A stretch of DNA of 64,000 nucleotides, from assembly GCA_034435035.1 (NCBI GenBank), contig DAOTXW010000081.1, forward strand, positions 72,580-136,579. Direction: 5' to 3'. Positions 15,267 to 64,000 of this stretch are shown here, in pieces. Source of the DNA: Anaerolineae bacterium. GTDB lineage: Bacteria > Chloroflexota > Anaerolineae > Aggregatilineales > UBA3940. The stretch's first letter is position 1, and every line of letters begins with the position of its first letter. The notes below the pieces were generated by a model that saw nothing but the letters and a program-made list of their open reading frames with translations, was not told the origin of the DNA and did no database searches. The translations under genes and the position numbers were made by a program.

Positions 15267-18227
15267 TCAGGGCTCCAGCAGCAGACCCTCCAGCAGGATG
15301 CGATCGTCAATGGCCGTGCCGCCGGCATCGACCACCGGCAGCCGGGTGTTGGTCGCCAGCAGGTACACGCCGATCTCAAGCTGATAGGAGCCGGGCGGGG
15401 CATCCGCATCCAGCGGTACAGCATACCGATCGCTGATGCGCTCACCAGGCGGCCAGGTGGAGGTAGGGTAGGTTCCCTGCACCGGCCAGGCATCGATCTG
15501 CCCGTGCACCCGGCCGTCGGGGCCCAGCAGATGCACGAAGACGGTATAGTCCTGATCCATCCGGGCCAGCCCCTGCCATGTCAGGGTGACCTCCACGATC
15601 TGGCCCGGCTGCAGCCTGCCGGCTTCAAAGCTGACAGCTTCCAGCAGCATCCGGTTGTCGAAGTTGGCGATGGCCTGGGCTGTGGCGCTTCCGGCCAGCG
15701 TGGTGCGGGCCAGCTCACAGCGATCGCGCAGCGGCTGGAGCCAGCCGCAGCGGAGCGGCCCACCTGCGATCTGCCAGATCACCACCGCGGGATCGCCCTC
15801 ACCGCGGGCAGCGGCCAACCGTGCCGGGCTGCCGGGCAGCTCGCCGCCCGAGACGGCATCTCCGGTCCACGCTGCCGCTACCTCGCGATCCAGCTCCGGG
15901 GTCCGCCAGCCCGCCGACAGCCGGATCACGCCGCCCTCCGGCGCACGCTCCGGGGCCTGCGTGAACAGCAGCACGCCGCCCGGCGCCGCGATGGACGACC
16001 GCCGGCCCCGGGACTCCAGCCGCCCGCCTGGCAGCACCACTTCCAGGGCGGCTGCCGTCGCCCACTCTGACCCATCTCTCAGCAGGATGCTGTCCGGCGA
16101 GAAAGGCGGCCCCAGCCCCACTTGCAGGCGGTAGCTGCCCGGGGGCAGCCACCCCGGCACGGGGATGGCCGTGAAGTCAGGGATGATCTCGCCGTCTTTC
16201 CATGCCACCGGCGGGTACCGCCCACTGACAGGGTAGGCTGGCTGTCCCTGCCAGACGACCTGCCCATCGGCATCAACCAGCCGCTGTCGCATGTGAACGT
16301 TATCGGTCAGGCCGGCAGCCCCCTGCCAGTAGAGGGTGACCCATGCATCCTCGCCGGCGAGGACCGGAGCGGCGGGCAGTTCAGCGCCCAGCAGAACGAT
16401 CCCGTTCTGCCATTCCGCCGGCGTGCCCGACAGGTCAGGGACGACCCGCAGCGGCGCAGCGCTCACTTCCACCAGCGGCCCCATTGCGCGCAGATGGTAG
16501 GTTCCCTCCAGCCCCGGCAGGAAGCGGGCCAGGTATACCGTCTGCCCGGCCGCCAGCCGCTCCCGCAGGTCAACCTGATACTCGGCCTCTGTGCCCAGCA
16601 CCACCACCTCGATATCCGGCCGCAGCCCCTCGATGCGGTGCAGGTATTCCAGGGGGGCCACCTTCTCGCTGTCAGCCAGAATCGCGGCGTCGGCATCCAG
16701 CGGCAGCGCCAGCACGCGCCGCCCCCACGCCTCCAGCGCCTGCTCGTCCGACCAGTCAAACGTGGGGCCGGTCGTCCACACTGCCTGCAGCGGCAGCCAT
16801 GCCAGAAGCGTCAGGGCCGCCGCCTGCAGCCACAACGAGAGCGCCTTCGGGCTGCGCCGTGACATCAGCTCGATCAGCACGCCCGCAGCATAGCCAATCC
16901 AGATCGCCTGCAGTAAAAACAGCGGGATCAGGAAGACTCCGATATCCGGTACCAGGTAGTTCAGGCCATAGAAGAAGTATGCGGCAAACGCCAGCGCCAT
17001 CACCAGCGCCGCCTGCCAGCGGCGTGCCGCCAGCAGAGCCAGCCCGCAAGCGGATGCAATCAGGCCCGGCCAGCCCATCTGCGCCAGCAGCAGCCGCGCC
17101 ACGATCCGCCAGCGTTCTGGATCATCCAGCCAGGCTCGCATCTGCAATGCGCCGCTGAAGCGGCTGCCGCTCACCCAGCCGATGAACTCATCGGGACGCA
17201 TCAGGCGTCCATCGTGCAAGGCCGGCCAGCGCAGCGGAATATACAGGTACACCAGCAGCCCGGCGATCAGAGCACCACCGGCCAGCGCCCACTGGCGCAG
17301 CGTCAGGCGCTGATGCGCCAGCGCCACGGCCACTGCCGGCAGCAGCAGCACCGTCGTGAGGTGGTTGGTGAGGCTCAGCCCGATCAGCCCACCCAGCAGG
17401 ATCACGCGCTGCGGGGAACTGCCGCCGGCGAGCAGGCTCAGGCTCAAGCCCAGAATGGCCGCTGCAAAGGCGTTGTGAAGCGCGTACACTTCGGCGATTA
17501 CCGCCTGGCTCCAGAAGATGGGGCTAAACGCAAAGGTCAGTGCCGCCAGGCCGGCGGGGATCGGTTCGATGCCCAGGATGCAGCGCAGAACCAGATACAG
17601 GGCAATCACGGCCGCTGCCGCGGCGGCAGCCGAGGTCGTGTTGACGGCCACTGCCGCGCTCCCCGGGATAGCCAGACTGAACAGCTTTCCGAGCAGGATG
17701 TACAGCGGGTAGCCGGTCGGGTGAGCCACGCCCAACACCGGGGCCGTTACCTGAAACTCGAAGGTATCCGCGCGGCCGATGGTGCGCTGGAGCGTGATCA
17801 GGTAGGCTGCCAGTGTCGTCGCGCCCACCAGCGCCGCCTCCCGGCGCGCCTGCCGATGAGAGAGCCAATCAGCAGGAGGCAGCGCCAGCGCCGCGCTCAG
17901 CGCCAGCGCTCCGCCGATCAGAATGGCGCCGCGCAGCGGGTTGACGGCATCGGGTGGGGCCAGCAGGTACGGCCAGATCAGGACAGCCGGCAGCAGCGAG
18001 GCGAGCGGCAGGTGGCGGCGGAGCAGTTCCACCAGTGCCCCCAAGACCGCTCCGGCAGCCGCTAACGCCAGCACCACTCCGGGTGCGCCCAGCCCGGCGA
18101 AGCGCAGCGGGGCAGCCTCATAGAGCAGGCGGGAAAGCCCGGCGGCCAGCGTGCCGCCGGCCAGCGCAGCGGCCAGAGTCTCACCAGCCCGGCGGAACCA
18201 GCTCGCAGCGCGGGCGCCAGGTTTCAT
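15267..18227 (-). CDS. DUF2723/TMEM260-like GT-C-fold membrane glycosyltransferase with an N-terminal TM extension and two copies of a C-terminal beta-rich module
   Basis: GRADTFEFQVTAPVLGVAHPTGYPLYILLGKLFS matches the DUF2723 signature (D/E..E/F...LGxAHPxGYPLY). More than 12 predicted TM segments. C-terminal modules occur around aa 640-740 and 875-986. ATGA overlap with the mrdA stop at 18224-18227. Confidence 0.75.
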   Translation of the reverse strand: MKPGARAASWFRRAGETLAAALAGGTLAAGLSRLLYEAAPLRFAGLGAPGVVLALAAAGAVLGALVELLRRHLPLASLLPAVLIWPYLLAPPDAVNPLRGAILIGGALALSAALALPPADWLSHRQARREAALVGATTLAAYLITLQRTIGRADTFEFQVTAPVLGVAHPTGYPLYILLGKLFSLAIPGSAAVAVNTTSAAAAAAAVIALYLVLRCILGIEPIPAGLAALTFAFSPIFWSQAVIAEVYALHNAFAAAILGLSLSLLAGGSSPQRVILLGGLIGLSLTNHLTTVLLLPAVAVALAHQRLTLRQWALAGGALIAGLLVYLYIPLRWPALHDGRLMRPDEFIGWVSGSRFSGALQMRAWLDDPERWRIVARLLLAQMGWPGLIASACGLALLAARRWQAALVMALAFAAYFFYGLNYLVPDIGVFLIPLFLLQAIWIGYAAGVLIELMSRRSPKALSLWLQAAALTLLAWLPLQAVWTTGPTFDWSDEQALEAWGRRVLALPLDADAAILADSEKVAPLEYLHRIEGLRPDIEVVVLGTEAEYQVDLRERLAAGQTVYLARFLPGLEGTYHLRAMGPLVEVSAAPLRVVPDLSGTPAEWQNGIVLLGAELPAAPVLAGEDAWVTLYWQGAAGLTDNVHMRQRLVDADGQVVWQGQPAYPVSGRYPPVAWKDGEIIPDFTAIPVPGWLPPGSYRLQVGLGPPFSPDSILLRDGSEWATAAALEVVLPGGRLESRGRRSSIAAPGGVLLFTQAPERAPEGGVIRLSAGWRTPELDREVAAAWTGDAVSGGELPGSPARLAAARGEGDPAVVIWQIAGGPLRCGWLQPLRDRCELARTTLAGSATAQAIANFDNRMLLEAVSFEAGRLQPGQIVEVTLTWQGLARMDQDYTVFVHLLGPDGRVHGQIDAWPVQGTYPTSTWPPGERISDRYAVPLDADAPPGSYQLEIGVYLLATNTRLPVVDAGGTAIDDRILLEGLLLEP

Positions 18228-27787: not shown

Positions 27788-27805
27788 TGTCACTCCACCG
27801 ATGCG

Positions 27806-27826: not shown

Positions 27827-27938
27827 AGTATACACTGTTATTTTTACGCGTCAAGACTCTGATCATGCAGAGGCTCCGGCTCCGTGACACACAGGCTGTG
27901 TTACAATCACTCCCAGGCTCCCAGACTGAGAGGTGCGT

Positions 27939-41839: not shown

Positions 41840-42643
41840 ATGGCGCCTGACCTGGGCCGCATCGGCCCCTATTATCTGCGCTCCTACACCCTGCTGCTCG
41901 ATCTGGCTATTCTGCTGGGGCTGGCCCTGCTCGCCTGGCATGGCCGGCGGGCCGGCGAGCGTCCTGCTGACTGGGTGGATGCCGGCCTGAGCGCGCTTGC
42001 AGCCGGGGTCCTCGGCGGCCGCCTGGGCCACGTCATGATCTATCGTGACTATTTTGCCGAACACCCCGATCGCATTCTGCAGGTATGGCGCGGCGGCCTG
42101 GACTGGCACGGCGCGATACTGGCCGGGCTGATCGGGCTGGCGATCGGCTGCCGGTGGCGCCGGCTGCGTTTCCGTGCCGTGGCCGATGCGCTGGCGCTGG
42201 CGCTGCCGCTGGGCGCACTGCTTACCTACACTGGCTGCCTGATGGGCAGCTGCGGCCACGGGCGCGAGGTGGCCTCGCTGGCCCAGTATCCTGCCCCACT
42301 GGTGCTGGAGCTGCCTGATCTTTACGGCGTGCGCGCCCCGCGCCTGGCCAGCCAGCTCTACGGGCTTGCCTGGAGCGCCGTGATCCTCGCCCTGTCGCTG
42401 GCGCAGGCCCGCCGCGAGGGCCGCCCCGGCGTGCGTCTGTGGATCGCCCTTGCCCTTCTATCAGCCGGCGCCTTTGCTGTGGGCTTCACCCGCGGCGACT
42501 CGATCCCGATGCTGGGCGCGCTGCGCCTTGACCAGGTGCTGGATCTGGCAATGGCCGCGGTCGCTCTGGCGGGCCTGCTGCTTGCCGGGCGCCGCACCCC
42601 CACGTATACCCTCTATGGGCCTGCTGGATTCGTACGCAGATAA
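41840..42643 (+). CDS. Divergent Lgt-family (prolipoprotein diacylglyceryl transferase-like) membrane protein
   Basis: YYLRSYTLLLDLAILLG, GVLGGRLGHVMIY and VWRGGLDWHGAILAGLIGL resemble Lgt. The canonical GR-x-GN-x-x-N-x-E-x-x-G block is replaced by TGCLMGSCGHGREV. Confidence 0.6.
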   Translation: MAPDLGRIGPYYLRSYTLLLDLAILLGLALLAWHGRRAGERPADWVDAGLSALAAGVLGGRLGHVMIYRDYFAEHPDRILQVWRGGLDWHGAILAGLIGLAIGCRWRRLRFRAVADALALALPLGALLTYTGCLMGSCGHGREVASLAQYPAPLVLELPDLYGVRAPRLASQLYGLAWSAVILALSLAQARREGRPGVRLWIALALLSAGAFAVGFTRGDSIPMLGALRLDQVLDLAMAAVALAGLLLAGRRTPTYTLYGPAGFVRR

Positions 42644-48601: not shown

Positions 48602-49600
48602 TTATTCGGCAGCCGGACCGCCGGCAGCCGGACCGCCGGCAGCCGTCTCCGGTCGGGGCGGTTCTGCCGCGGCGGCAGGCGCAGCCGGTGACGCGGTGGA
48701 TGCCGCCGTCGGCTGCTCGCCCGCAGGAGCAGCGGCCGCCTCTGGCCGGCTGGCCGCCGCGATCTTCACATCCTCCGGTAGCGCCACCAGCGAGCGCAGC
48801 GCCTCCGGGGGGATGCGAACCAGCCGGAACTGCATCAGGGGTATTTCCTGGCTGTTATGGGTCATGTGGCCCCGCGCAACTTCAGCCGGATCATAGAAGC
48901 GTTCAATGTGCTTGCGGAACCGGGTGGGCAGCTCCTGCTCGACTTTAGTAGCGGCCTCCTGCTTGAGGCCGATCAGGAAGTGATCGTCCCGCGGGTGACC
49001 GATGAACGACCCCGATGGATCGACCTGATGCAGCAGATCGCCGATCATTTTGGCAGCGCTGCGGATCACCTGATTGGCTGAGACCGGCCCGTATTTCTCG
49101 CTGAAGGCGGCGAAGTGATCGATCTGCACATCCACAAACACGTTGTCCGGGTTGCCCAGAATCCCGGGGAGGCGCTCTTTGATCAGGGTCATATTGGGCA
49201 GGCTGGTGCGCGGATCCACCAGCGGAGTCCCGCCCATGCGGATGATGATGTTATGCACCCGCAGCCGCAGCTCCTCGACATCGAAGGGCTTGGTGACATA
49301 ATCATCAGCGCCCAGGCTCAGTCCATCCAGCCGATCACGGCGTTCATCCTTCTGTGTCAGAAAGATGATCGGGATCAACCGGGTGCGCTCCTCTGAGCGC
49401 AGCCGACGGCAGATTTCGTAGCCGTCCATGTCTGGCAGCATAATGTCCAGGATGATTACTTCTGGCTGCTGTTCCAGTGCCATCTCGATCGCACTGGCCC
49501 CCGTCAGCGCACTAACCACCTCGTAGCCGACCATCTCAAAATAGCGGCGCAGCAGGTCAGACGTGATGACCTCATCCTCAACAACCAGCAGTTTATTCAT
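48602..49600 (-). CDS. Response regulator: intact REC domain, degenerate GGDEF domain, Ala/Pro-rich tail
   Basis: REC motifs: VVEDE, ILDIMLPDMDG, FLTQ, VTKPF. GGDEF-like region: DPRTSLPNMTL, VQIDHFAAFSEKYG. At the GGDEF position the sequence is GHPRDDHF. Confidence 0.8.
   Translation of the reverse strand: MNKLLVVEDEVITSDLLRRYFEMVGYEVVSALTGASAIEMALEQQPEVIILDIMLPDMDGYEICRRLRSEERTRLIPIIFLTQKDERRDRLDGLSLGADDYVTKPFDVEELRLRVHNIIIRMGGTPLVDPRTSLPNMTLIKERLPGILGNPDNVFVDVQIDHFAAFSEKYGPVSANQVIRSAAKMIGDLLHQVDPSGSFIGHPRDDHFLIGLKQEAATKVEQELPTRFRKHIERFYDPAEVARGHMTHNSQEIPLMQFRLVRIPPEALRSLVALPEDVKIAAASRPEAAAAPAGEQPTAASTASPAAPAAAAEPPRPETAAGGPAAGGPAAE
48608..48645. repeat. 15-bp tandem repeat (about 2.5 copies) inside the response-regulator 3' end
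   Basis: ggcagccggaccgcc occurs twice (48608-48622, 48623-37), followed by a partial copy ggcagccg. On the minus strand it encodes AAGGPAAGGPAAE. Confidence 0.85.
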
Positions 49601-49637
49601 GCGGGCTTCCTTACTGACGATCTCTGTGGAAGGTCGC

Positions 49638-50831
49638 TTACAACTGGCGGGCCAGGTTCAGCACCGCCCGCGAGAAAAGAGAATCCGGGCGCGACATGAC
49701 CAGCGGCATTCCCTCGCTCAAGGCATTAACCTGCGCCGGCTCATAGGGAATATCAGCGGTGATCGGGTAGTTGATGGCCTGCATCACCGCTTCGTGCGTC
49801 ACGCCGCTGGGTCGTGTCCGGTTAATTACCACATGATGGACAGCCGGCAGCTTGAGGTCCAGAATGGCACGCAACGTATCAGGCGCATTGATCAGATCAG
49901 CGGGATCATCGCCCACCACCAGCACCAGGTGCGCAGCATATCTCAAGGCCCCAACGGTCATATCGTCCAGCGAGGCTGGCAGGTCCACGACCATCCGGCG
50001 GAATCCTTCGGACAGGACTCCGCATATATATTTGAGCATTTCGCTGCTCATCTGACTGCGGGTGGGGCCCAGGGGCGCAGCCAGTACGGCGATACCGGCA
50101 GCATGGTCCAGCATCAACGCACTACCAATCGTCCGCTTGTCGGGCAGGGCGCTCAGGTCGGCCAGATCGACCCACGTGCTGCGCGGCGGCACCATTCTGA
50201 GCTGCACGGCAACCTGACCGGCCTGCTGGTGGAGATCGATCACGCAGGAGCGCCCAAACTGCATCAAGCCAAGCCCCAGGTTGACCGCCAGCGTGGTCGC
50301 GCCAGCGCCTCCCGCCAGCCCCATGACCGCTACCAGCGGCAGGCCGCCTGGGGGGGATGACATTCCCGGAGCCGGTGGGGCGCCGACCCCCGGCGCTGCG
50401 CCCGGGGTGCTGGGCTTTGCCGGCAGGGGCGGCGGCGGCTCCAGGGGGGCCGGCGTGGTGCGGGCTCCGGTACGAAGCAGGTCCTCGACATGCCGGGTCA
50501 GATCATCGCGCGTCACCGGCTTGGTGACGAAGTCATCGGCGCCAGCATCATGCGCCTGTTCACGATGCTCACGCTGTGAGAGGGCCGTCAGGATGAGCAG
50601 GGGAATGTCCATCGTGCGTGGATCTTCGCGCAGGGTACGGCACACTTCGTACCCGCTGATCTCAGGCATCATGACATCGACAATCGCCGCATCCGGCTGC
50701 TCCTGGCGGGCAATCTCAATGCCTTCACGACCGTTGCTGGCCAGGATGGTCTGGTGCCCCGCCCGCTTCAGCATCAGGCTCATCATCTGAAGCAGACTTT
50801 GATCGTCATCGATGACCAGGATACGGGCCAT
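49638..50831 (-). CDS. Response regulator: REC domain, Pro-rich linker, CpaE/MinD/ParA-like domain with both Walker-A lysines missing
   Basis: REC motifs: VIDDD, IVDVMMPEISG, ILTAL, VTKPV. The ParA-like part reads VAVMGLAGGAGATTLAVNLG where KGGxGKTT is expected. ATG 50831 has an AAGG RBS. Confidence 0.75.
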   Translation of the reverse strand: MARILVIDDDQSLLQMMSLMLKRAGHQTILASNGREGIEIARQEQPDAAIVDVMMPEISGYEVCRTLREDPRTMDIPLLILTALSQREHREQAHDAGADDFVTKPVTRDDLTRHVEDLLRTGARTTPAPLEPPPPLPAKPSTPGAAPGVGAPPAPGMSSPPGGLPLVAVMGLAGGAGATTLAVNLGLGLMQFGRSCVIDLHQQAGQVAVQLRMVPPRSTWVDLADLSALPDKRTIGSALMLDHAAGIAVLAAPLGPTRSQMSSEMLKYICGVLSEGFRRMVVDLPASLDDMTVGALRYAAHLVLVVGDDPADLINAPDTLRAILDLKLPAVHHVVINRTRPSGVTHEAVMQAINYPITADIPYEPAQVNALSEGMPLVMSRPDSLFSRAVLNLARQL

Positions 50832-50948
50832 GTTCTTACCTTTCCCGGGTTGAGCACAGGCCATGACAGGCTGGTGCACAGCAGTTGCTATCGTCCCTAT
50901 TGTACGCAGATTATGTCAAGGAGCAATCCGGGGCGGCCCCTGAGCAGG

Positions 50949-50976
50949 TTGTGGAATATTCAGCAGACGCTATACT
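50949..50976 (+). promoter_or_regulatory. Promoter candidate for the STAS gene
   Basis: TTGTGG (50949-50954), 16 nt, TATACT (50971-50976). Confidence 0.35.
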
Positions 50977-51016
50977 TGGGACATCCGATTTCCATCCCTG
51001 GCCCCGGAGCCTACCG

Positions 51017-51364
51017 ATGAGCGTGACGATTGCCGAAGAAACTCTCGAGGGCGGGCTGCATAAGGTGTCGCTGGCCGGAACGCTGGATGCCCCCGGCACC
51101 ATGAGCATTGAGGAGGACTTCAAAGCCCGGCTGATCGCCATCGGCGGTCGGGTGCTGGTCGATCTATCCGGCGTCGAATACATGTCGAGCTACGGCCTGC
51201 GGATGTTCCTGGTCAGTGCTAAGGCCCTGCACACGGCTGGCGGTGAACTGTGCCTGGCAGCCCCGAACCGCACGGTGATGCAGATCATCCAGATGGCCGG
51301 CTACGACACGATGTTTCCCGTCTACGAAACCATTGAGGAGGCTCTGCTGTATCTCGGCCAGTGA
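51017..51364 (+). CDS. STAS-domain protein (anti-sigma-factor antagonist family)
   Basis: VLVDLSGVEYMSSYGLRMFLVSAKAL...MQIIQMAGYDTMFPVYETIEEAL. Ser in the YMSSYG context sits at the usual phosphorylatable position. Confidence 0.8.
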   Translation: MSVTIAEETLEGGLHKVSLAGTLDAPGTMSIEEDFKARLIAIGGRVLVDLSGVEYMSSYGLRMFLVSAKALHTAGGELCLAAPNRTVMQIIQMAGYDTMFPVYETIEEALLYLGQ

Positions 51365-51709: not shown

Positions 51710-52522
51710 GTGAAGCTTAAGTGGCCGCAGGCCCGCCATTTGATTATCTCTCCTCATCTGGACGATGGAGTCCTGAGCTGCGGCGGGTTAATATGGGAGC
51801 AAGCAGCGCGCGGGGAAAGCATCGCGGTCGTGACGCTGTGCGCTGCCAGCCCGCCTCGGTCGCTGCCCCTCTCACCGATCGCCGCCGAACTGCATGCACG
51901 CTGGCAGGCAGCGCTGCCACCCGGCAGCGGCTTCTCGGATCTGCTGGCTGTGCGCCGCGCCGAAGACATCCGATCCCTGTCTATGCTACATCCCGCCATC
52001 GAAGCGGCCCATATGCCGCTGCTGGACTGCATCTACCGCCACCACCCGGCCACCGGAGAGCCCCTGTATCCGCATGAAGCCGATATCTTTGGGCCAGTTC
52101 ACCCGGCTGATCCGGCCCGCACTCTGCTGGAGACGCTGGCCCCGCCTCCGCCGGACAGGTGGGTCTACTGCCCGCTGGCCATAGGGAATCATGTAGATCA
52201 TCAGCTGGCACGCTGGGCCGTGGAAGGCTGGGGAATCCCACCGGGGCAGTTGTTCTACTATGAAGACTACCCCTACGCCGACGACCCCGCGGCTCTGTCG
52301 GCCATCATCGACCGCCAAGCGGGCTGGATACCCCGGACGATCGCCCTGTCGCCGGCTGCTCTGGACGCCAAGATAGCCGCTGTGGCGCAGCACGTCTCCC
52401 AGATCGAGACTTTCTGGGCCAGCGTGGAGGTCATGTCAGATCGACTGCGGGCCTTCGCCACCCGGGTCGGCGGCGAGCGGCTCTGGGTAGCGGCCGGTCA
52501 ACCAGCGGATCTCACAGACTAA
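51710..52522 (+). CDS. PIG-L/LmbE-family N-acetylglucosaminyl deacetylase
   Basis: LIISPHLDDGVLSCGGLI (PHxDD motif) and a later HVDH motif (IGNHVDHQLA). Confidence 0.8.
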   Translation: MKLKWPQARHLIISPHLDDGVLSCGGLIWEQAARGESIAVVTLCAASPPRSLPLSPIAAELHARWQAALPPGSGFSDLLAVRRAEDIRSLSMLHPAIEAAHMPLLDCIYRHHPATGEPLYPHEADIFGPVHPADPARTLLETLAPPPPDRWVYCPLAIGNHVDHQLARWAVEGWGIPPGQLFYYEDYPYADDPAALSAIIDRQAGWIPRTIALSPAALDAKIAAVAQHVSQIETFWASVEVMSDRLRAFATRVGGERLWVAAGQPADLTD

Positions 52523-54494: not shown

Positions 54495-57400
54495 CTACGG
54501 CGCGAAGGGGATCTCCACAAAGTCGCCGCCGGGCGGGTTGACTACAGTCAGGCGGATTGAAGTCTGTGGATCATAGATACCGATGCGCAGCGTGTAAGGG
54601 CCGGGCGGCGCATCGGCTGGTAGCGTGATGTCGTGCGTCTGCGCAATGAAGTCACCTGCTCGCCAGCCTGTTGAGGGCGCCCCCAGCCCGTCGCTCTGGG
54701 CCAGCATGGCGCTGTTTCCATCCAGCAGGTGCAGGAAGATACGCAGCGGAACGGGCGTCGGCCCGTCGGCTATCCAGGTCGTCAGCAGCGTGAAAGACTG
54801 GCCCGGCCCCCCGACTCCGAACGCCTCCACCCCGAGGAGCGTGGCAGCCGCGCTCGTCTGGCCGGGCAGCGCAAAACCGTATTCCTGCCCCCCGCTGTCC
54901 CTGGACGGCAGATCGCCGGCGCTGACGCGGTAGCGCGTGTAACTGCTGTGGGCAGCCTCCGGCATGATGCCCCAGCCGGGCATCTGCGCAGCCAGCGCCG
55001 GATGCAGCCCGGCAAAGGCCGGGATCGCCAGCTCCGCCGCGCCATCGAAACTGGCAGCAGGCACCAGCAGCGCGGTGTGCGGGTCAAAGAAGCTCAGCGA
55101 TCGCGCATAAACGTCATCATTCATCATCAGCAGCAGCGTGCCGGGATCCATCAGATACGGGGTGACGCCCCCCACGGCGACCGGAGGACGGTCCGGGCGG
55201 GCGTCGAGATCGGCAGCCAGCGGCACATAGTCCGATTGGTACCAGAAACGCACGGCGGGATCCGCAGGCCAGAGCGTGAAGTAGTGCAGAGCAGTGTTCT
55301 GCAGCTGGTGCACCAGACCCAGCGCCGCCACCAGCCCCACCGAGATCGCCAGCCGCAGATGCCCGGACTGTCGCAGCGCTCCCATCAGGCTGTCCACGGC
55401 GATGGCCGGGAAAATATAGGCGATTCCGAGCAGACCGATGGTGCGCGAGGGGTTCAGCGCTCGCTGGGTCACCAGTGTCGGGACGAGCATCGCCGCCAGC
55501 CAGATCAGCGCCAGCGCATAACCCTCCCGGCGCGGGCTGCCCCGCTGGAAAAGCCCGCCCAGGGCGATCAGCAGCCCGATGTAGAACAGCGCCGCCAGAA
55601 TCAGCGTCGGGAAGACGGGCAATGCCGCATTATTCACATCGATCCCCGGGTCGCCCCGGACGGTGAACATCCCCATCACGGGCAGCACATTGGCCAGCGC
55701 CGGGCCCGGATCGCCGGCCCGCAGGGCCTCCAGCGGCGCATCCACCGCCGCCGCCCTGGCAGCGGCCTGCGGGTCGGCCCAGGATCGCGCCAGTGGGATG
55801 CACAGGATCGCCGCCAGCAGGAAGCTGGCAGCCAGCCCGGGCCATTTGCCTGCCAGCCGGTCGCGCTGCAGCAGAGCCGCGGCTGCCACCCACAGCAGCA
55901 GGATGAGCGGCAGCATCAACGCCGCCGGATAGGTGTGCAGCGCCAGTGCCAGCATCGCCCCGGCGGCAGCGTAGAGCCAGGGCGGGGGCCGCCGGCTGTC
56001 CAGCAGCCGCGCAAACAGATAGGCGGCCAGCAGGGCCATGACCGGTGCGCTGCCGGTCCGTTCCCCCAGGCGCGAGAACGTCAGCGCCCAGTAAGAAGTC
56101 GTGATGCCGGCAGCGGCCATCAGAGCGGCCGGCCTGCCAAACAGCCGCCGCGTCAGGCTGAAGGTAGCCGCCACCCCGATCATGCCCAGCGCCAGCGCGG
56201 GCAGCCGCGACCCCAGGATATTCGTGCCGATCAGCCGGAAAGTCGCCGCGACCAGGATCTGGTACAGCGCCTCGCGCCCCCCGCCATACGGGTACAGCGC
56301 CCGGAGTTCTCCCCGGTAGATCATCTCGGCGTTGTACCAGTCGAAGACCTCATCATGGCTCACTCCCGGCGGCGATGCGCTGAAATGCGCGCTCCGCAGG
56401 GCGAAAGCGCCTACCAGCAGCGCCGTGACAGCCGCCCATTCCCAGCCGCTCAGCCGCCTGGCCCGCCTTCGAGATACCGCAGGCTCCGGAGGCCGGTGCA
56501 GCGCCCAGCCCGCGGCCGCGGCCAGCGACGCCGCCCACAACCAGGCCAGCGCGATCAGCCAGCCGCCGTCAGGCCCGATCACACGGGTGGCGTGCGCGTC
56601 CTCCGGGCTGGCGGCGTAGACCCAGAAGAAGTCCACTCCGTCGATCCGCACCACGAGCTGGGGAGGCTGCCCACTGAGCTCGTCCCAGCGCGGGCGCCAC
56701 TCATGCTGCTCCAGCTCCCGCTGGAACGCCGACAGATTGAACACGTAGTATTCGGAATCCCGGCGCAGGTCGCGCACCACTTCGCCGGCGAAAAAATCTC
56801 CCAGATAGATGTTCAGCGGCCAGCCAGCCCCGACTGTCAGCCGTCGGGGTTGCGGCTGCTGGTTCAGGTAATCGATGACGTAGTTCGCGCCCTCCGTCTC
56901 ACCCACCAGCTCGATCACCGTCACCGCCACCCGGTTGCCCCCCACCAGCGCGTTGTGATGGGCGCTGAAGTTCGGCGCGTAGTTCAGGGCAGTGGCTGCC
57001 TGCAGCAGCAGGGCAGCAGCCATCATACCGGCTGGGGTCAGGCGAGCGAGTCTCCCCCCGGCGGGCAGCCGCGACTGCAGCAGCGATGCCAGGCTGGCGG
57101 CGCCGGCAGCCGCCAGCACCTCCAGCATGACATGGGTGGGCAGCAGATAGCGATCAAACTGCTTGGCCCCGATGCTCATCTGCACTGTGAAGAAGAAGGC
57201 GTATGCCGCCAGCAGCCAGAAGATCAGCGGCGGCAGCGGTGGCTTGAAGCGGCGCGGGACGAACAGATACAGGCCTGCTGCCGCCGCGCTTAACGTCAGC
57301 GTGACGGCCGTCATGTTGAACAGCAGCGTGGCCGGGTAAAAAAGGATCGGCGGGCGCTGGCCGGCGTAATACTGGCCGGCGAAGAAACGCGCCAGCCCAT

Positions 57401-58250
57401 GCCCCCGGGCAACATGCTCGCCCGCCCCGCTGACGATGCTCTGCAGCACCAGGCCGGGCTGCACCCACATCGCCGGCCACAGCGCCAGCGGCAGCGCAGC
57501 CATGCCGATCCACTGGAGCAGCGGCAGGACGATCGCCCGGGCGGCCACGCCTGCCAGCCAGCGAGCGCGCCCCTGCGCGCGATCAGTCCATTCCGCCCGA
57601 ACCCGGACACTGGCCGCGGCCAGCAGCGTCAGACCGGCAAAGGGCAGCAGGAACAGGGAAGGCACCTTCGTCAGGATCGCCAGCCCACCAACCAGACCAG
57701 ACAGCAGCAGGTCACCCCGCTGCCGGCTGTGAGCATGGTTCAGGATCAGCAGCCCGGAACACAGCATCAGCGATGCGGCCAGCGCATCCACATGCAGCAC
57801 GCGCCCCTGCGCAGCATAGAAGGGTGAGAAGGCCATCAGCCCGCCGGCCGTCAGTCCCAGCGGCCACCCGCCGAGCCGCACCAGCAGCCGGGTATTGAGG
57901 ACGATCAGGCCGGCGATCACCAGTGCCAGACCCAGGATTGAGGCGCTGATCTCGCGCCCGGTTCGAGTGGCATCCGGTCGGGCTGCCCAGTCAAACAGAG
58001 CGCCGGCCGCTGTCCCTCGTGTGGCCTCGAACAGCGCCAGCGAGCCACCTCCAATGGCCATCACGGTGAATCCGGGGTGGCGCGACTGGTAGGTGCTGGC
58101 CCAGTCCTGCCCGGCGACGGCCTCCACGAAGGCACGGCTGCGGCGGTGCCACTGGCGTGGACGCTCCACCGGCTGGTAGGCGCGAATCAGAAAGGCGATC
58201 AGGTACAGTGCGATCAGCGCCAGGGCAGAGACGCGGCGAGAGCGGATCAT
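54495..58250 (-). CDS. 1251-aa two-module polytopic membrane protein: an N-terminal module paralogous to the 58247..60049 product, fused to an ArnT/PMT-like GT-C module with a C-terminal beta-rich module
   Basis: aa 1 to ~585 are collinear with the neighbouring 600-aa protein (e.g. YQSRHPGFTVMAIGG vs YQSRHPGVTGMVIGG, GGLMAFSPFYAAQGRVLHVDAL vs GGLMAFSPFYLAQGRVFHLDAL). The junction is near nt 56480 (GWALHRPPEPAVSRRRARR). Module 2 has the first-loop motif SPPGVSHDEVFDWYN. The C-terminal module spans 54495-54803. Confidence 0.7.
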   Translation of the reverse strand: MIRSRRVSALALIALYLIAFLIRAYQPVERPRQWHRRSRAFVEAVAGQDWASTYQSRHPGFTVMAIGGGSLALFEATRGTAAGALFDWAARPDATRTGREISASILGLALVIAGLIVLNTRLLVRLGGWPLGLTAGGLMAFSPFYAAQGRVLHVDALAASLMLCSGLLILNHAHSRQRGDLLLSGLVGGLAILTKVPSLFLLPFAGLTLLAAASVRVRAEWTDRAQGRARWLAGVAARAIVLPLLQWIGMAALPLALWPAMWVQPGLVLQSIVSGAGEHVARGHGLARFFAGQYYAGQRPPILFYPATLLFNMTAVTLTLSAAAAGLYLFVPRRFKPPLPPLIFWLLAAYAFFFTVQMSIGAKQFDRYLLPTHVMLEVLAAAGAASLASLLQSRLPAGGRLARLTPAGMMAAALLLQAATALNYAPNFSAHHNALVGGNRVAVTVIELVGETEGANYVIDYLNQQPQPRRLTVGAGWPLNIYLGDFFAGEVVRDLRRDSEYYVFNLSAFQRELEQHEWRPRWDELSGQPPQLVVRIDGVDFFWVYAASPEDAHATRVIGPDGGWLIALAWLWAASLAAAAGWALHRPPEPAVSRRRARRLSGWEWAAVTALLVGAFALRSAHFSASPPGVSHDEVFDWYNAEMIYRGELRALYPYGGGREALYQILVAATFRLIGTNILGSRLPALALGMIGVAATFSLTRRLFGRPAALMAAAGITTSYWALTFSRLGERTGSAPVMALLAAYLFARLLDSRRPPPWLYAAAGAMLALALHTYPAALMLPLILLLWVAAAALLQRDRLAGKWPGLAASFLLAAILCIPLARSWADPQAAARAAAVDAPLEALRAGDPGPALANVLPVMGMFTVRGDPGIDVNNAALPVFPTLILAALFYIGLLIALGGLFQRGSPRREGYALALIWLAAMLVPTLVTQRALNPSRTIGLLGIAYIFPAIAVDSLMGALRQSGHLRLAISVGLVAALGLVHQLQNTALHYFTLWPADPAVRFWYQSDYVPLAADLDARPDRPPVAVGGVTPYLMDPGTLLLMMNDDVYARSLSFFDPHTALLVPAASFDGAAELAIPAFAGLHPALAAQMPGWGIMPEAAHSSYTRYRVSAGDLPSRDSGGQEYGFALPGQTSAAATLLGVEAFGVGGPGQSFTLLTTWIADGPTPVPLRIFLHLLDGNSAMLAQSDGLGAPSTGWRAGDFIAQTHDITLPADAPPGPYTLRIGIYDPQTSIRLTVVNPPGGDFVEIPFAP

Positions 58251-60049
58251 GCCGGCTCCTGTTCAGGGGTTCTGGATGCCCACCAGCTGGCCGCCGCGAC
58301 AGCCGCGATCCATGCCCAGGCCAGGATGATGAGCAGCGGGCCACCCCGGTTGATCACGATGGTCTCCTGATCGGCAGGCGGCGGGCTGGCATACAGCCAC
58401 GCCTGCTCCACCCCGTCGAACGCCACCACCAGCGCTGGCGGGCGATCCAGATAGCGCCGGTCGATCTGCTCTGGCTGGCGCTGCACCGCAGAGAGGTTGA
58501 AGGCATAGAAGTCCACTACCTCCGGGCCGGTTGTGACAGCGCCGCCGAAGTACTGGTTGAGCGACTCGTCCAGCGGGGCCACCACGCCGACGCGAAGGGC
58601 CTCCGGGTCTGGCTGCCGATTCAGATAAGCGGCGATGTCTGCCACTCCCTCATTCTGGCCCATCAGTTCCACCACACCCCGCGCCCCGCGCCCCCCGCCC
58701 AGCAGGGCATTGTAGTGCGATCCATAGTAGGGAGCATAGGGCAGAACGGCGGCCATCTGCAGAGCCACGACCAGCCCGCAGATGACGGCCATGGCCCGAT
58801 CGGCAGGCCAGCGCACCCTCCGGGCGATCATCGCAGCGAACTCGACGGCGCCGGCGGCGGCGATGACCTCCAGGGGCAGGTAGCCGGGCAGGATGTAGCG
58901 GTCGCTCTGCTTGGCCCCCAGCATCATCTGCAGCGTGAAGAAGAAGACGTAAGCCGCCAGCAGCCAGAAGGCCCGCCCGCTCAGCGACGCTCCGCCCCGC
59001 CGCCACCCATACCGGATCGCCCCCACCACCCCCAGACTCAGCGTCACAAACGACATCTTGAACAGCAGGATCGTTGGGTAGAGCAGCGGGCTGGGGCGGG
59101 CGCCCTGTACGATCTGCCCGGCGAAGAAGCGCCCGCCGGGATGCGGGCGCAGCAGGTGGATCAGCGCTCCGTAATACATGTTGCCGAGCGCCGTGACAGG
59201 TTCCACCCACATAACGGGCCAGAGGGCATGCGGGAGGGCAGCCATCAGCCCCCACAGCAGGCCCGGACGCACCACCCCCCGCCAGCCCAGCCCCGCCAGC
59301 CACCGCGCTCGCCTGCCGCTGTGCCTCCCCCACCCCGCCCGCACCTCCGGCAGCACCCCCACCCCCAGCACCAGCCCCACATACGGCAGCAGAAACACGC
59401 TCGGACTTTTCGTCAGCAGCGCCAGACCCCCCAGCACCCCCGACCCCGCCAGCCACCCCGGCACACGCCTCCCCCCGCTGCCTTCCTCCACATGCACCAG
59501 CAGCATCAGCCCTGACGCCAGCATCAGCGACGCCACCAGCGCATCCAGGTGAAACACCCGCCCCTGCGCCAGATAGAACGGCGAGAACGCCATCAGCCCG
59601 CCGCTCACCACCCCCACCCACCGGCCTCCCAGCTTCCCCACCAGCCATGCATTCAGCACAATCAGCCCCGCCACCACCACCGACAGCCCCAGCACCCCCG
59701 CCGCGATCCGACGCCCCCGCTCCGTCGCCCCCGGCGCCGCCCCCCACTCAAATACCCACCCCCACCTCGTCCCTGCCACCGCATCATACGCCCGCAGACT
59801 CAACCCCCCGATCACCATCCCCGTCACCCCGGGATGCCGCGACTGGTACGTCTCCCCCCACTCCCTCCTCTCCACCGCTTCCATGAATAACTCCGACCGC
59901 TCGTACCACTGCGGCGGCCGCGACACCGGCCGGTACCCCCTCACCACCAGACTCACCCCGAACACTACCCCCAGCATCACCCCATACACCAGACGGCCCC
60001 GACGAATGGCAGAACCCCCGGCAGGCATAGAGGCCGATAAGATTGTCAT
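58247..60049 (-). CDS. 600-aa polytopic membrane protein (GT-C-like module, no C-terminal beta-rich module)
   Basis: More than 10 hydrophobic segments. Paralog of the N-module of the downstream gene. ATGA overlaps at both ends (58247-58250, 60046-60049). Confidence 0.65.
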   Translation of the reverse strand: MTILSASMPAGGSAIRRGRLVYGVMLGVVFGVSLVVRGYRPVSRPPQWYERSELFMEAVERREWGETYQSRHPGVTGMVIGGLSLRAYDAVAGTRWGWVFEWGAAPGATERGRRIAAGVLGLSVVVAGLIVLNAWLVGKLGGRWVGVVSGGLMAFSPFYLAQGRVFHLDALVASLMLASGLMLLVHVEEGSGGRRVPGWLAGSGVLGGLALLTKSPSVFLLPYVGLVLGVGVLPEVRAGWGRHSGRRARWLAGLGWRGVVRPGLLWGLMAALPHALWPVMWVEPVTALGNMYYGALIHLLRPHPGGRFFAGQIVQGARPSPLLYPTILLFKMSFVTLSLGVVGAIRYGWRRGGASLSGRAFWLLAAYVFFFTLQMMLGAKQSDRYILPGYLPLEVIAAAGAVEFAAMIARRVRWPADRAMAVICGLVVALQMAAVLPYAPYYGSHYNALLGGGRGARGVVELMGQNEGVADIAAYLNRQPDPEALRVGVVAPLDESLNQYFGGAVTTGPEVVDFYAFNLSAVQRQPEQIDRRYLDRPPALVVAFDGVEQAWLYASPPPADQETIVINRGGPLLIILAWAWIAAVAAASWWASRTPEQEPA

Positions 60050-62274
60050 GGTTCCACCACCCGAATTGTGTTCAGCGCCAGCCAGTTGTCGATGATGTGC
60101 CCATCTTCAGCTACGATGTTTAACCGCTCCCCGCTGCGATCGGAGAACCAGCCCAGCTCAAGCGTGTAGATCCCCGGCGGCATGTTATCCGGCAGCTGGA
60201 TGCGCCTCCGGTCAACGATCACCTGCCCGGGGATCCAATCCGTCGTCGAGGCGTCCGGTTCCCCCGGGTTGCCATCATTGCCGGCCCACTGCCTGTCCCA
60301 TCCCTGCGTGATGTGCAGAAAGACCTTGTAGGACTCATCCTGCGGCGGATCGAGCGCCTGCCAGTACAGCTTGACCGTCGTTCGCTTGCCAGCCCGTACT
60401 ACCCGCGGCTCGATGGTGTAGCCCACCAGCGCAAAATGGCCATCCCAGTTGATGAATGTCTGGTTCGGGTAGTCGGCCTCCGGATTGTCCGGTATCCGCA
60501 CCCGGCCAAACACCAGCGCATCGTCACCCTCCTCGCCGACCGGCAGCCGGGTCCCATCGCTATCATACAACCCGATCTCGACGGCAAATCGATCAGGAGA
60601 GTAAGCTGTGCCCGGCAGGTAGATGCGGTAGGTCTCGGTGAAGATGTGCCCCGGCCGCCACCAGTGCGAGGGGTAGTTGCCCAGGCCGGTGTATGTGTCC
60701 CGCTGCGCGACCATCGCGCCATCCGGGTTCACCAGGTGGATGAACACTGAGTAGGGGCGGTCGGTGGGCCGCAAGATTTCCCAGGTGACGGTCACACTAA
60801 CCGGCTCGCCCGGGCGGACCGTTTCCGGTTCGGCACGCACCGCCAGGATGCGGGCAGCGTCTCCGACCTCTATGTTCAGCGAATCGGGCGGCGCTGCCTC
60901 ATGGCCGGGCAGCGCGTAGGCCGGGATCAGGTACCCGATCAGCGCGGCCAGCGCACAGGCAACCATCCCGGCGCAGACCGCCCCCGCCGCGGCCGGCTGC
61001 CAGCGGATCGGCAGCGCGCCGGGCAGACCGGCTGCCACCAGCACGGCAAAGGCGGGCAGACCGGGGAAGAAGAAGCGCCCCATCGCCCCGGCCGGGCTGA
61101 CGGTGATATAGGCATACAATACAGCAAAGTTGATCATCATCGCTGCGGCCAGCACCGCCAGCGCGCGCCGCCGGGGCGCGTCGAAATCCCCGCGGGCAGC
61201 GCGGATCGCCAGACCCACCAGTCCAGCCCCACACAGCGCGGCACTGGCGATATAGAAGGACGCCGGGACCGGAATCTGCCCGTAGCCAAAGCGTGCCCAC
61301 AGGCTTGTCCAGGCATATACCAGTTCGCGCCCGGCCAATTGCACCCCGGCCACCGGGTCGCGGAAGCCCCAGATCTCCGTCAGCCGGAAGAAGCCGGTTG
61401 GCTCCCCATACAGGATCGTGTTGCGGACGTACCACCAACCAGCGATGACAGCAGTGGCACCTGCGATGATCCCCACGGCGCGCAGCAGGGCTCCCCGGCG
61501 GCTGCGCCAGCCCGGCGCGGAGTCGGCAGGCAGCGGGGCCAGTGCCAGCGCCAGCCCGATGACCGCCAGCATAGCCACCAGGTTAAACTTCACCAGCGCC
61601 GCCGCGCCGGACAGCGTCCCCAGCAGCACCGCCCGCCTCTGCGTCAGGCCAGCCTGAACCACCTGCACACAGACCAGCGCGAGCGCCGCGCCCATCAGCC
61701 CGGCGGGCACATCGTTGTTGACCGCCCCGCCCAGATAGAGGAACATCGGGTTGAACGCCACCAGGCCGCCCGCTGCCAGTTCCACCGCCGGCCGGTCGGG
61801 AGCCAGCAACCGCGCCGTGAGCGCGGTCAGCGCGACAGCCCCCGCCCCCCACAGCACGGTGACCCAGCGGGCCAGATGGGCCGCCAGCGCGGCATCCCGG
61901 TAAGGCCAGGCTTCATCCGGCCCGTGCAGGTAGAGGTTCTTGTTATCGGTCCCAACCTCCCAGTTTCGATATGACCACTGCGGGTTGGTCGGCGGTTCAG
62001 CCAGCGGGTCGGCCGGGCGCGCCCAGAAGCTCAGCAGAGCAGCGGTCGCGTAATAGAGGGGCGGATGATGCGCCTGTGCGTTGCCCGCATCGCCGGACTG
62101 GACCGGCAGCCGTCTATAATCAGCCAGGTAGCGCACATAGCGGTAGTGCCGCAGCTCATCGGTTGCCTCATGGATCGGGTTGGCGATGCTGTAGGCCGCC
62201 GCCAGAATAACGTAAGCCAGCGCCAGCAGCGTGGGCAGCGGATCCGATCGCAGGGAGCGGAACAGGTGCATCAT
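60046..62274 (-). CDS. 742-aa ArnT/PMT-like GT-C membrane glycosyltransferase with two tandem C-terminal beta-rich modules
   Basis: First-loop motif PIHEATDELRHYRYVRYL and about 11 TM segments. C-terminal modules lie at roughly 60391-60810 and 60046-60390. Confidence 0.7.
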   Translation of the reverse strand: MMHLFRSLRSDPLPTLLALAYVILAAAYSIANPIHEATDELRHYRYVRYLADYRRLPVQSGDAGNAQAHHPPLYYATAALLSFWARPADPLAEPPTNPQWSYRNWEVGTDNKNLYLHGPDEAWPYRDAALAAHLARWVTVLWGAGAVALTALTARLLAPDRPAVELAAGGLVAFNPMFLYLGGAVNNDVPAGLMGAALALVCVQVVQAGLTQRRAVLLGTLSGAAALVKFNLVAMLAVIGLALALAPLPADSAPGWRSRRGALLRAVGIIAGATAVIAGWWYVRNTILYGEPTGFFRLTEIWGFRDPVAGVQLAGRELVYAWTSLWARFGYGQIPVPASFYIASAALCGAGLVGLAIRAARGDFDAPRRRALAVLAAAMMINFAVLYAYITVSPAGAMGRFFFPGLPAFAVLVAAGLPGALPIRWQPAAAGAVCAGMVACALAALIGYLIPAYALPGHEAAPPDSLNIEVGDAARILAVRAEPETVRPGEPVSVTVTWEILRPTDRPYSVFIHLVNPDGAMVAQRDTYTGLGNYPSHWWRPGHIFTETYRIYLPGTAYSPDRFAVEIGLYDSDGTRLPVGEEGDDALVFGRVRIPDNPEADYPNQTFINWDGHFALVGYTIEPRVVRAGKRTTVKLYWQALDPPQDESYKVFLHITQGWDRQWAGNDGNPGEPDASTTDWIPGQVIVDRRRIQLPDNMPPGIYTLELGWFSDRSGERLNIVAEDGHIIDNWLALNTIRVVEP

Positions 62275-64000
62275 GGGCGGGCGATCGTGATCTCAGCCAG
62301 GGTGATGCCATCCCCCAGCGGGCTGCCATCCGGAGCGATCACCGGCAGCCGGGCCAGAGTATCGGCGTCATACATCCCGATCCGCAGCGTGTACTGCCCC
62401 GGGGCGGCATCCGGCGGGATGGGGATCGGCCACTCATCCCAGTCGAAGTACCCCGGCAGCCAGTCATAGGTACGGTGCAGCGCATCGCCCGGTGGGCCAT
62501 CCAGCTGGGCGACCGGCTCCCCTGCCGGCGGCAGCAGGTGTGCATAGACGATGAAGTTGGCATCAGTCTCCCTCAGGGCCGACCAGTACAGCGTCAGCGC
62601 CAGTGTCTCGCCGGGAACGACAACCGCTGAGGGTAGATCATAGCCTTTGAAGATCACTGCCTCGCCCAGAAAGACATGCATCGGGTGCTGCTGGATCGGC
62701 GGCACGTGAAACACATAGCGCTCCGGCCCCTGCCATCCCCGATCCCACGGGCGGGTCAGATCGAGCACAGTTTCAACTTCGCTCAGAAACGCCCGGCTGT
62801 CATTTTCCGGGGCAAAGTAGCCGCCCCGGTAGATGTTCCGATAGTCCGCGACCAGATACTCTACCCCGGCACGGGCGAAGTCTTCCAGGCTGCGTTCATA
62901 GACCGAATCGATCTCTTCGACTACATAAATGCGCGTGCTGGGGAAACCGCCAAAGTTGCGATCAAACTCCACGTGATCCTTCTCGACCGCGATGTGCGTC
63001 CCTTCCGGCGTGCTGGCGATGAACCAGTCGGCGGTCAGGGCGCGGGTATCCGGCAGCATCATTTCGCTGCCTGCCCGCCAGTTCGCACCGATCCAGGGAA
63101 GAGTCAGCGCCAGCGCCGCCGCCAGCGTGAGCACAGGCCGCTGTCCGATCAGCAGGCCGAGCGCCAGCCCCCACAGGAGCGCAAACGCCAGCACCGCCAC
63201 GTAGCGATCCTGCACCCGGTTGGTCTGGAACAGCCCCAGCAGCACCACCGTGCTGACCATCACCGCCGTCAGCAGCCCGATCAGCGCCCACCGGATTCCC
63301 GGCAGGCGATCTCGCCGCCGGCCCAGCGCACCCAGCGGGATGGCGATCAGCGTGCCCCACAGATTCAATGGGCCGATCTGAGCCAGCAGCCCGTGCCACC
63401 CGCTCCGCAGCGAGACAAACGCCACGATCGACTCGCGCTCATACAGCTGCCGGCCGTGGAAGCGCATCAGGAAACCCGCCACCACCGACTCGCGGTCCAG
63501 CACCAGCAGGATCCCGCCCACCGCGGCCGCGGCCAGCGCGCCCAGCGCTGCCGCCCGCCAGAGAGACCGGCGCGGCGCCCAGGCCGCCAGCAGGAAGGCC
63601 GGCAGCAGCAGCAGCGGCAGCATCGTGTATTTGTTGTACACAGCAACGGCCCCGGCGAGGGCCGCCAGCAGCAGCGGGGTGCGCCGTCCGGCGCGCAGCG
63701 CATAGGCGCAGCCCAGCAGACACAGCATCCCCAGCAGCCATGACAGGTTATCCGTCTTGAGTGTCTTGGCAAAGGTAACTGCATCGGGCTGGGCCGCCAG
63801 GAAGGTCATCGCTGCCAGGCCAGCAGCGCGGCTGTGCAGCCACCTCCCAGCCTGGTAGGTGGCAGCCAGCAGCAGCAACCCGATCCATACATTCGACACG
63901 CGCCCAAAGAAGAAATAGACCGGCTGGTCCACTTGGCCGGGAGTGACCAGGTTGAGCAGGATGTGCTGCCCGGTGAGCAGGATAATGCGGGGGCGCGAGT
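62271..64000 (-). CDS. ArnT/PMT_2-like GT-C membrane glycosyltransferase with C-terminal beta-rich module; 5' end beyond window
   Basis: The frame stays open upstream of the track's GTG 63932 to nt 64000 (…RPRIILLTGQHILLNLVTPGQVDQPVYFFFGR…). The hydrophobic core is typical of the family. C-terminal module at 62271-62612. ATGA overlap with the next gene. Confidence 0.7.
   Translation of the reverse strand, partial: SRPRIILLTGQHILLNLVTPGQVDQPVYFFFGRVSNVWIGLLLLAATYQAGRWLHSRAAGLAAMTFLAAQPDAVTFAKTLKTDNLSWLLGMLCLLGCAYALRAGRRTPLLLAALAGAVAVYNKYTMLPLLLLPAFLLAAWAPRRSLWRAAALGALAAAAVGGILLVLDRESVVAGFLMRFHGRQLYERESIVAFVSLRSGWHGLLAQIGPLNLWGTLIAIPLGALGRRRDRLPGIRWALIGLLTAVMVSTVVLLGLFQTNRVQDRYVAVLAFALLWGLALGLLIGQRPVLTLAAALALTLPWIGANWRAGSEMMLPDTRALTADWFIASTPEGTHIAVEKDHVEFDRNFGGFPSTRIYVVEEIDSVYERSLEDFARAGVEYLVADYRNIYRGGYFAPENDSRAFLSEVETVLDLTRPWDRGWQGPERYVFHVPPIQQHPMHVFLGEAVIFKGYDLPSAVVVPGETLALTLYWSALRETDANFIVYAHLLPPAGEPVAQLDGPPGDALHRTYDWLPGYFDWDEWPIPIPPDAAPGQYTLRIGMYDADTLARLPVIAPDGSPLGDGITLAEITIARP

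Follow-up and report, generated by a model that had tools for sequence, protein, structure and literature searches.

A beta-sandwich module without a named family at the C-termini of diverse GT-C glycosyltransferases of the Chloroflexota

A 64,000-nucleotide stretch of the genome of an Anaerolineae bacterium (contig DAOTXW010000081.1, positions 72,580 to 136,579; hereafter the window) encodes six copies of a protein module of about 130 amino acids, which end four glycosyltransferases of the GT-C superfamily. We found that this module is a Chloroflexota-wide family, which, in 1-4 tandem copies, follows the final transmembrane helix of polyprenyl-phosphate-dependent GT-C enzymes with cores of several unrelated families, either at once or behind a short linker domain. 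By its predicted structure it is a divergent, unnamed member of the immunoglobulin (Ig)-like/E-set fold class. The last copy in each array appears to be a subtype of its own, and we lean towards the view that this terminal copy binds an envelope glycan. The task of GT-C enzymes is to assemble or modify glycans of the envelope on the outer side of the membrane; to our knowledge, their recognition of polymeric acceptors is understood in only a few cases, such as Emb and AftD.

All six copies are encoded on the minus strand, where they end the genes that we term P1, P3, P4 and P5, and they range from 128 to 138 amino acids. They are listed below, together with a module-sized stretch that separates the two copies of P5. 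Residue numbers of the conserved site follow copy P4c, the sequence used for the structure model of the module.

54498..54887, minus strand: module copy P1c, P1 residues 1122-1251; sole, terminal copy; 133 bits; leave-one-out E 5e-21; 15/20 signature positions
60049..60462, minus strand: module copy P3b, P3 residues 605-742; terminal; 177 bits; leave-one-out E 5e-26; 15/20 signature positions; lacks Q59 and E78
60493..60879, minus strand: module copy P3a, P3 residues 466-594; internal; 155 bits; leave-one-out E 1e-26; 14/20 signature positions
62274..62681, minus strand: module copy P4c, C-terminal 136 residues of P4; terminal; 164 bits; leave-one-out E 2.5e-29; 16/20 signature positions
15270..15674, minus strand: module copy P5b, P5 residues 852-986; terminal; 169 bits; leave-one-out E 4e-35; 20/20 signature positions, fully canonical
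16035..16418, minus strand: module copy P5a, P5 residues 604-731; internal type; 143 bits; leave-one-out E 8e-16; 11/20 signature positions
15675..16034, minus strand: inter-copy stretch of P5, residues 732-851; module-sized, in the slot of the second copy in three-copy TMEM260-like relatives

A hidden Markov model (HMM) of any five copies recovers the sixth with E-values from 8e-16 to 4e-35. When all 699 six-frame open reading frames (ORFs) of the window are searched, the copies reach 133-177 bits, against 6 bits (E 0.29) for the ORF ranked next; the window therefore holds no seventh copy among these ORFs, and the 600-residue protein P2, which lies among the host genes, is devoid of the module. 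Pairwise identities are 22-37% in a clean alignment, in which seven columns, W33, W74 and G77 among them, do not vary. An initial annotation, made from the DNA alone, had proposed six copies on four GT-C proteins and none on P2; both searches bear this out, all the peptides that it quoted are present, and the conservation it had noticed survives a proper alignment. Its coordinates lead to these peptides but miss the strand: the genes run on the minus strand, where the ORFs are open, and a plus-strand reading is ruled out by translations ridden with stops. The size of about 100 amino acids that it gave was too small, and the first motif of its own pattern (G..h.hTh.W..L) falls upstream of its coordinates.

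The two internal copies differ in how much of the family signature they keep. P3a, which begins 15 residues past the final transmembrane helix, retains F46, H48, Q59, D61 and R111; in P5a, F46, H48 and D61 are replaced by R46, R48 and P61, and a gap falls at R111/L112. The stretch between the two copies of P5 gives no significant match to the module, even with a richer HMM or one specific to second copies, and the P5 orthologues at loci L002 and L003 reach E-values of only 0.2-1.9 there, over the first strands. All that remains in P5 residues 732-851 is a faint first-strand motif, GGVIRLSAGW; they are probably the degenerate relic of a module copy.

The host genes, with P2, are as follows.

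54495..58250, minus strand: P1, 1251 amino acids; P2-like GT-C core, second PMT_2 core and one module; PMT_2 63 bits
58247..60049, minus strand: P2, 600 amino acids; GT-C core without module; PMT_2 33.4 bits, PMT 26.8 bits
60046..62274, minus strand: P3, 742 amino acids; ArnT/PMT-like GT-C core and two modules
62271..64000, minus strand: P4; PMT_2-like GT-C core and one module; ORF open to 63998, its 5' end cut by the window edge
15267..18227, minus strand: P5, 986 amino acids; TMEM260-like (formerly DUF2723) GT-C core and two modules; TMEM260-like 98 bits

All the host proteins belong to the GT-C glycosyltransferase superfamily. Pfam scores lie above the respective cut-offs for P1, P2 and P5, and just under the cut-off, at 21.4 bits, for P3 and P4; a gene identical to P4 in GCA_964451875.1 encodes 652 amino acids. 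That the module ends GT-C enzymes which otherwise differ, as had been suggested at the outset, holds: Pfam assigns PMT_2/PMT and TMEM260-like (DUF2723) cores, and phmmer detects no similarity among the five cores, with the sole exception of the N-terminal part of P1 and P2. P1 is a fusion of two GT-C cores plus one module: its residues 1-570 are 48% identical to the adjoining P2, and behind them come another PMT_2 core (residues 666-818) and the module. The topology of such a fusion is consistent, in that the closing transmembrane helix of the P2-like part brings the chain back to the cytoplasm. P4, P3, P2 and P1 are consecutive, giving five GT-C cores in four genes, and are very probably co-translated, because there is a 4-bp overlap at each junction. 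No synthase or flippase for a donor sugar (polyprenyl-phosphate sugar) adjoins this cluster among the annotated neighbours.

The full-length model of P3 is of high confidence (predicted local distance difference test, pLDDT, 95.3; predicted template modelling score, pTM, 0.92) and places both module copies after the final transmembrane helix. Its core matches ArnT (5f15/5ezm), Pmt1-Pmt2 (6p25) and AftB (9dlh). The annotations of P3 orthologues, which carry PF13231/PF02366, read GT39, ArnT-like or phospholipid-carrier-dependent glycosyltransferase; the acidic motif of P3 after the first transmembrane helix (E36, D39, E40) is invariant.

With 126 homologues as input, AlphaFold2 predicts P4c to be a nine-strand beta-sandwich (pLDDT 96.3, pTM 0.88), the fold that had been expected from the DNA. 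A Foldseek search of the PDB with this model returned beta-sandwiches only, at 8-17% identity. The best matches were the O-antigen carbohydrate-binding domains of Wzt (6o14, 8dky, 2r5o), with template modelling (TM) scores of 0.57-0.64, E-values of 1e-4 to 2e-3 and identities of 13-14%; the comparison with carbohydrate-binding modules (CBMs) that the initial annotation had called for thus has a positive outcome at the level of the fold only. Further matches were NPC2/ML proteins, Der f 2, RhoGDI, the porphyran-binding CBM 8wae, Ig-like domains of the glycoside hydrolase families GH2 and GH3, and macroglobulin domains. The tandem pair of P3 is structurally like the fibronectin type III (FnIII) pairs of RbmA, transglutaminase barrels and arrestin. 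Both the model and its Foldseek neighbours thus place the module in the Ig-like/E-set class of beta-sandwiches.

At the level of sequence the module belongs to no named family of Pfam-A or NCBIfam, in keeping with the first reading of the DNA. The six copies gave nothing at the Pfam-A gathering score (the best being MalQ_N with 18.2 bits against a cut-off of 24.1), nor did the 126 homologues when scanned singly. NCBIfam returned no match on the module. Among PDB sequences, the six-copy profile found nothing below E 0.37, and a profile of 126 sequences found nothing at E <= 10. The sub-threshold Pfam echoes among the 126 homologues fall on families of beta-sandwiches (NPCBM_assoc 15, MG2 7, DUF4625 5, ML 5, RbmA-like_FnIII 3, Wzt_C 2), and mostly on the PPGxYxLxxG strand. 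The signature as a whole, YxVFxHL, AQxD, PTxxWxPGE, D, PPGxYxLxxGxY and RLPV, is specific to this family. The E-set and early Ig-like families, such as NPCBM_assoc/NEW3, MG2, ML and the Ig-like domains of GH2, share with the module the fold class, weak recurrent sequence echoes and Foldseek matches, but none reaches the gathering score on the window copies, and the signature and the exclusive C-terminal GT-C context are peculiar to the module.

An exhaustive profile search over 1.84 billion cluster representatives (clusters at 50% identity) recovered 29,587 representatives whose module match has an E-value of 1e-3 or less; for 19,739 of them it is 1e-10 or less. Architectures were counted on the best 150 of the 29,587 matches, and core types on 48 full-length representatives. 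Three copies are the rule in the best 150 (136 proteins), followed by four (8) and two (6); the array reaches the C-terminus in 149 of them, and in 145 no transmembrane helix follows the first copy. The Pfam cores of the full-length representatives are PMT_2 (33), PMT (11), TMEM260-like (7), PTPS_related (6), YfhO (2) and DUF6056 (1), and in none of the 48 does Pfam match the module itself. Every match that carries an organism name is from the Chloroflexota, and so are the 22 genuine loci from a genome scan queried with a single module copy; the groups named in the two sets are Anaerolineae, Ardenticatenia, Promineifilaceae and Chloroflexia. The lone locus outside the phylum, L024 in a member of the Burkholderiales (2768-3430), is a chance match that runs antisense in a FlgD-like flagellar hook gene.

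Candidates for a free-standing module were also considered. Proteins P0014, P0020 and P0047, on contigs of 0.39-1.5 Mb, are split gene calls directly behind fragments of GT-C genes. The short module-only proteins at loci on long metagenome contigs (L025, 4001-4633; L026, 4001-4702; L027, 4001-4441) come directly after PMT_2 or TMEM260-like fragments and are probably gene calls split by frameshifts, not free-standing domains.

A comparison of 367 copies from the representatives separates the terminal from the internal copies. The fractions of copies that conserve a given residue, terminal against internal, are: F46.98/.33, Q59.97/.49, D61 1.0/.64, P64 1.0/.71, T71.99/.74, E78.91/.50, D82.99/.67, Y104.98/.67 and R111 1.0/.41. 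H48 is present in.92 of terminal copies, and internal copies have arginine in its place. In contrast, the residues of the fold core, W33, W74, G95 and Y97, are equally conserved in both. Identity is 46% between terminal copies from different proteins, against 34.6% between terminal and internal copies from one and the same protein; moreover, identity among terminal copies is barely higher within a core type (48.8%) than between types (44.9%). By these values the terminal copy is a subtype of its own, strongly constrained and largely independent of the attached catalytic core. Co-variation of the module with the type of GT-C core, a check proposed at the start, is weak as judged by identity, though nearest neighbours are of the same core type in 26 of 47 cases, where 13.6 are expected.

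C-terminal domains of ArnT, PMT, Emb and PglB are periplasmic or lumenal, and by the positive-inside rule cytoplasmic segments of membrane proteins tend to be basic. The tails that bear the module are net acidic and the N-termini basic, with, for example, 25 lysines and arginines against 42 aspartates and glutamates in the tail of P3. Because the tails are acidic and follow the last transmembrane helix, and given how ArnT, PMT and Emb are known to sit in the membrane, we infer that the module lies on the extracytoplasmic side, beside the catalytic face of the enzyme.

Among known systems the nearest in function and architecture, as far as analogy reaches, is the C-terminal CBM of mycobacterial EmbC, EmbA and EmbB, along with the CBMs of AftD. 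In the arrangement predicted also for the Chloroflexota proteins, these are beta-rich soluble domains on the extracytoplasmic side, past the last transmembrane helix of a GT-C enzyme that depends on polyprenyl phosphate. The CBM of EmbC binds the acceptor arabinan, and mutation of its conserved tryptophans abolishes activity (PMC3044687). The resemblance lies in this position and not in sequence: the module has no Pfam match to the Emb C-terminal family at E <= 10, neither Emb nor AftD is among the top 50 Foldseek matches, and EmbC's C-terminal domain is actinobacterial and consists of two different subdomains, not of tandem repeats. The C-terminal domain of Wzt (PF14524), the best structural match, is likewise a beta-sandwich of about 140 amino acids at the end of a membrane machine for polyprenyl-linked glycans, and it recognises the terminus of the O-antigen (PMC11127046). 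Wzt_C differs in being cytoplasmic and fused to an ABC nucleotide-binding domain instead of a GT-C core, and the data do not support membership of the module in that family: identity is 13-14%, the window copies have no match, and only 2 of the 126 homologues show a sub-threshold one (E >= 0.013, the better at E 0.013). A third parallel, drawn by description only, is GT136 (ORF12) of three-component pentofuranose systems, an ArnT-like GT-C that decorates a polysaccharide and carries an uncharacterised beta-rich periplasmic domain past its last transmembrane helix (PMC11127046); it is proteobacterial and has a single such domain. A beta-sandwich, CBM-like tail on GT-C enzymes is already known as a concept, whereas this sequence family, its size, its restriction to the Chloroflexota among all matches that bear a name, and its division into terminal and internal copies are not described in the sources available to us, and literature searches found no published description of the module.

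Guided by the fold resemblance, the conservation pattern and these analogies, we favor, with a confidence only somewhat above even, the interpretation that the module is a CBM-like accessory domain, in line with the tentative idea of the initial annotation that it binds the acceptor or the polymer. The near-invariant site of the terminal copy (F46, H48, Q59, D61, T71, W74, E78, D82, Y104, R111) would bind an envelope glycan, either the acceptor or the growing product, and this binding would tether or orient the GT-C enzyme on its polymer, much as EmbC is served by its C-terminal CBM in the case of arabinan. The internal copies, with their relaxed site, may serve mainly as spacers or as weaker auxiliary binders. 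Since the same site occurs on cores without detectable sequence similarity, a ligand common to the substrates of all these enzymes, such as a shared envelope polymer, is more likely than one specific to each enzyme. Several observations weigh against this interpretation. In P3 the internal copy retains more of the polar site than the terminal one, which lacks Q59 and E78; the notion of an active terminal copy is accordingly a statistical rule and not an absolute one. The polar and aromatic set is defined from sequence, and may form one exposed patch, a buried network or a metal site. The likeness to the Wzt domain is at the level of the fold (13-14% identity, E ~1e-4) and is common also to NPC2/ML, RhoGDI, macroglobulin domains and arrestin. 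The best 150 matches are skewed to multi-copy, high-scoring proteins, and the topology is derived from crude hydropathy, charge and analogy.

The tandem arrays of 2-4 copies, and the fact that internal copies retain only the residues of the fold core, would also suit a passive structural element, that is, a rigid Ig-like stalk or spacer that binds no ligand and sets the distance or geometry between enzyme and wall, or steadies the periplasmic face. The likeness of the P3 tandem pair to generic scaffolds (RbmA FnIII pairs, transglutaminase barrels and arrestin) agrees with such a role, and there is a precedent in the beta-sandwich DUF1735, proposed to act as a membrane-bound spacer of carbohydrate-active enzymes (PMC11216935). 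We nevertheless consider a mere stalk unlikely: it leaves unexplained the 97-100% conservation of Q59, D61, P64, T71, D82 and R111 in the terminal copy across unrelated cores, as well as the cross-protein likeness of terminal copies that exceeds likeness within a protein, and P1 and P4, with one copy each, would make poor stalks. There is also a small chance that the site is an interface, either intramolecular, with the terminal copy folded back on the catalytic face to cover or regulate the acceptor site like a lid, or between proteins, through oligomerisation or docking to a common partner such as components of the elongasome. At a pTM of 0.92 the full-length P3 model implies that sandwiches and core are fixed relative to one another, the translational coupling of the four cluster genes suggests complexes, and P5 is co-transcribed with mreBCD-pbp2, with this linkage kept in all four orthologous loci compared. 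Yet an identical conserved site on cores without detectable sequence similarity argues against an interface specific to the core, no partner protein is evident in the gene neighbourhoods, and a site made up of H, Q, D, T, E, D and R with F, W and Y seems more typical of sugar or metal binding than of contacts between proteins.

The presence of NPC2, Der f 2 and RhoGDI among the top Foldseek matches (TM scores 0.47-0.60) and the sub-threshold matches to ML in 5 of 126 members raise the alternative of a lipid- or isoprenoid-binding sandwich, like ML/NPC2 or RhoGDI, that handles the polyprenyl-phosphate carrier of GT-C enzymes; this common carrier would account for one site on different cores. 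We regard this as improbable. GT-C cores are known to hold the carrier inside their membrane domain, ArnT 5f15 being an example; most of the conserved residues specific to the family are polar or charged and do not resemble the lining of a hydrophobic cavity; and in tandem arrays the conserved terminal copy is the one furthest from the membrane along the chain. We attach the lowest probability of all to the existence of a named and described family that is absent from, or undetectable by, the libraries used: homologues are named only GT39, ArnT-like, DUF2142 or hypothetical, their precomputed Pfam matches are limited to the N-terminal core, and the literature searches point the same way.

The genomic setting of P5 bears on where such enzymes might act. 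P5 is the fifth and last gene of an mreB-mreC-mreD-pbp2 string (window 15267-23118, minus strand), of which the other members are as follows.

21889-23118, minus strand: mreB
20916-21782, minus strand: mreC
20416-20919, minus strand: mreD
18224-20344, minus strand: pbp2, with a 4-bp overlap with P5

In each of the four other loci with enough flanking sequence (L002, L003, L004 and L026), the gene immediately upstream of the P5 orthologue encodes PBP2. On account of this conserved place behind pbp2 in the mre string, the gene order suggests that the P5 enzyme may act on the wall during elongation. P5 occupies the slot usually taken by rodA; at L026 the pair of PBP2 and P5 orthologue is followed by minCDE and a FtsW/RodA gene. 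A bolder proposal, which we put forward with little confidence, is that terminal copies serve as a targeting domain, specific to the phylum, for one common envelope polymer of the Chloroflexota, possibly peptidoglycan or a wall-linked polysaccharide, and recruit many GT-C enzymes to it, and that the P5 lineage is an integral, co-transcribed component of the MreBCD-PBP2 machinery. If both parts of this proposal were true, the Chloroflexota would possess a large, uncharacterised extracytoplasmic system of wall glycosylation coupled to cell elongation.

Some other genes of the window deserve mention in their own right. A signalling cluster (48602-51364) lies just upstream of the GT-C operon region; its members and a nearby deacetylase gene are as follows.

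48602-49600, minus strand: response regulator with GGDEF domain
49638-50879, minus strand: response regulator fused to a ParA/MinD/BcsQ-like ATPase
50885-51364, plus strand: STAS-domain protein
51710-52522, plus strand: PIG-L family deacetylase

The 64-kb window further contains two paralogous genes for Lgt, the prolipoprotein diacylglyceryl transferase (7501-8574, minus strand; 41840-42643, plus strand). An 896-residue protein (32350-35040, plus strand) has as its sole match an N-terminal P-loop of the HerA/FtsK type (residues ~25-87). Three well-supported ORFs with high G+C content at third codon positions are without a Pfam match at E <= 0.01: 4907-6805 (minus strand, 632 amino acids), 23347-24690 (plus strand, 447 amino acids) and 2819-3646 (minus strand, 275 amino acids).

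Taken as a family, the module comprises about 20,000-30,000 clusters at 50% identity, which makes it a very large domain family annotated in no sequence library that we queried. It probably marks the acceptor side of many GT-C enzymes of the Chloroflexota, and naming it would improve the annotation of thousands of proteins that are now labelled GT39 or hypothetical. That one such enzyme keeps its place behind pbp2 in the mre operon is a hint that glycosylation may be linked to elongation of the wall. With its near-invariant terminal site in a soluble domain of 130 amino acids, the module offers a cheap experimental handle on the envelope polymer of a poorly studied but environmentally dominant phylum.

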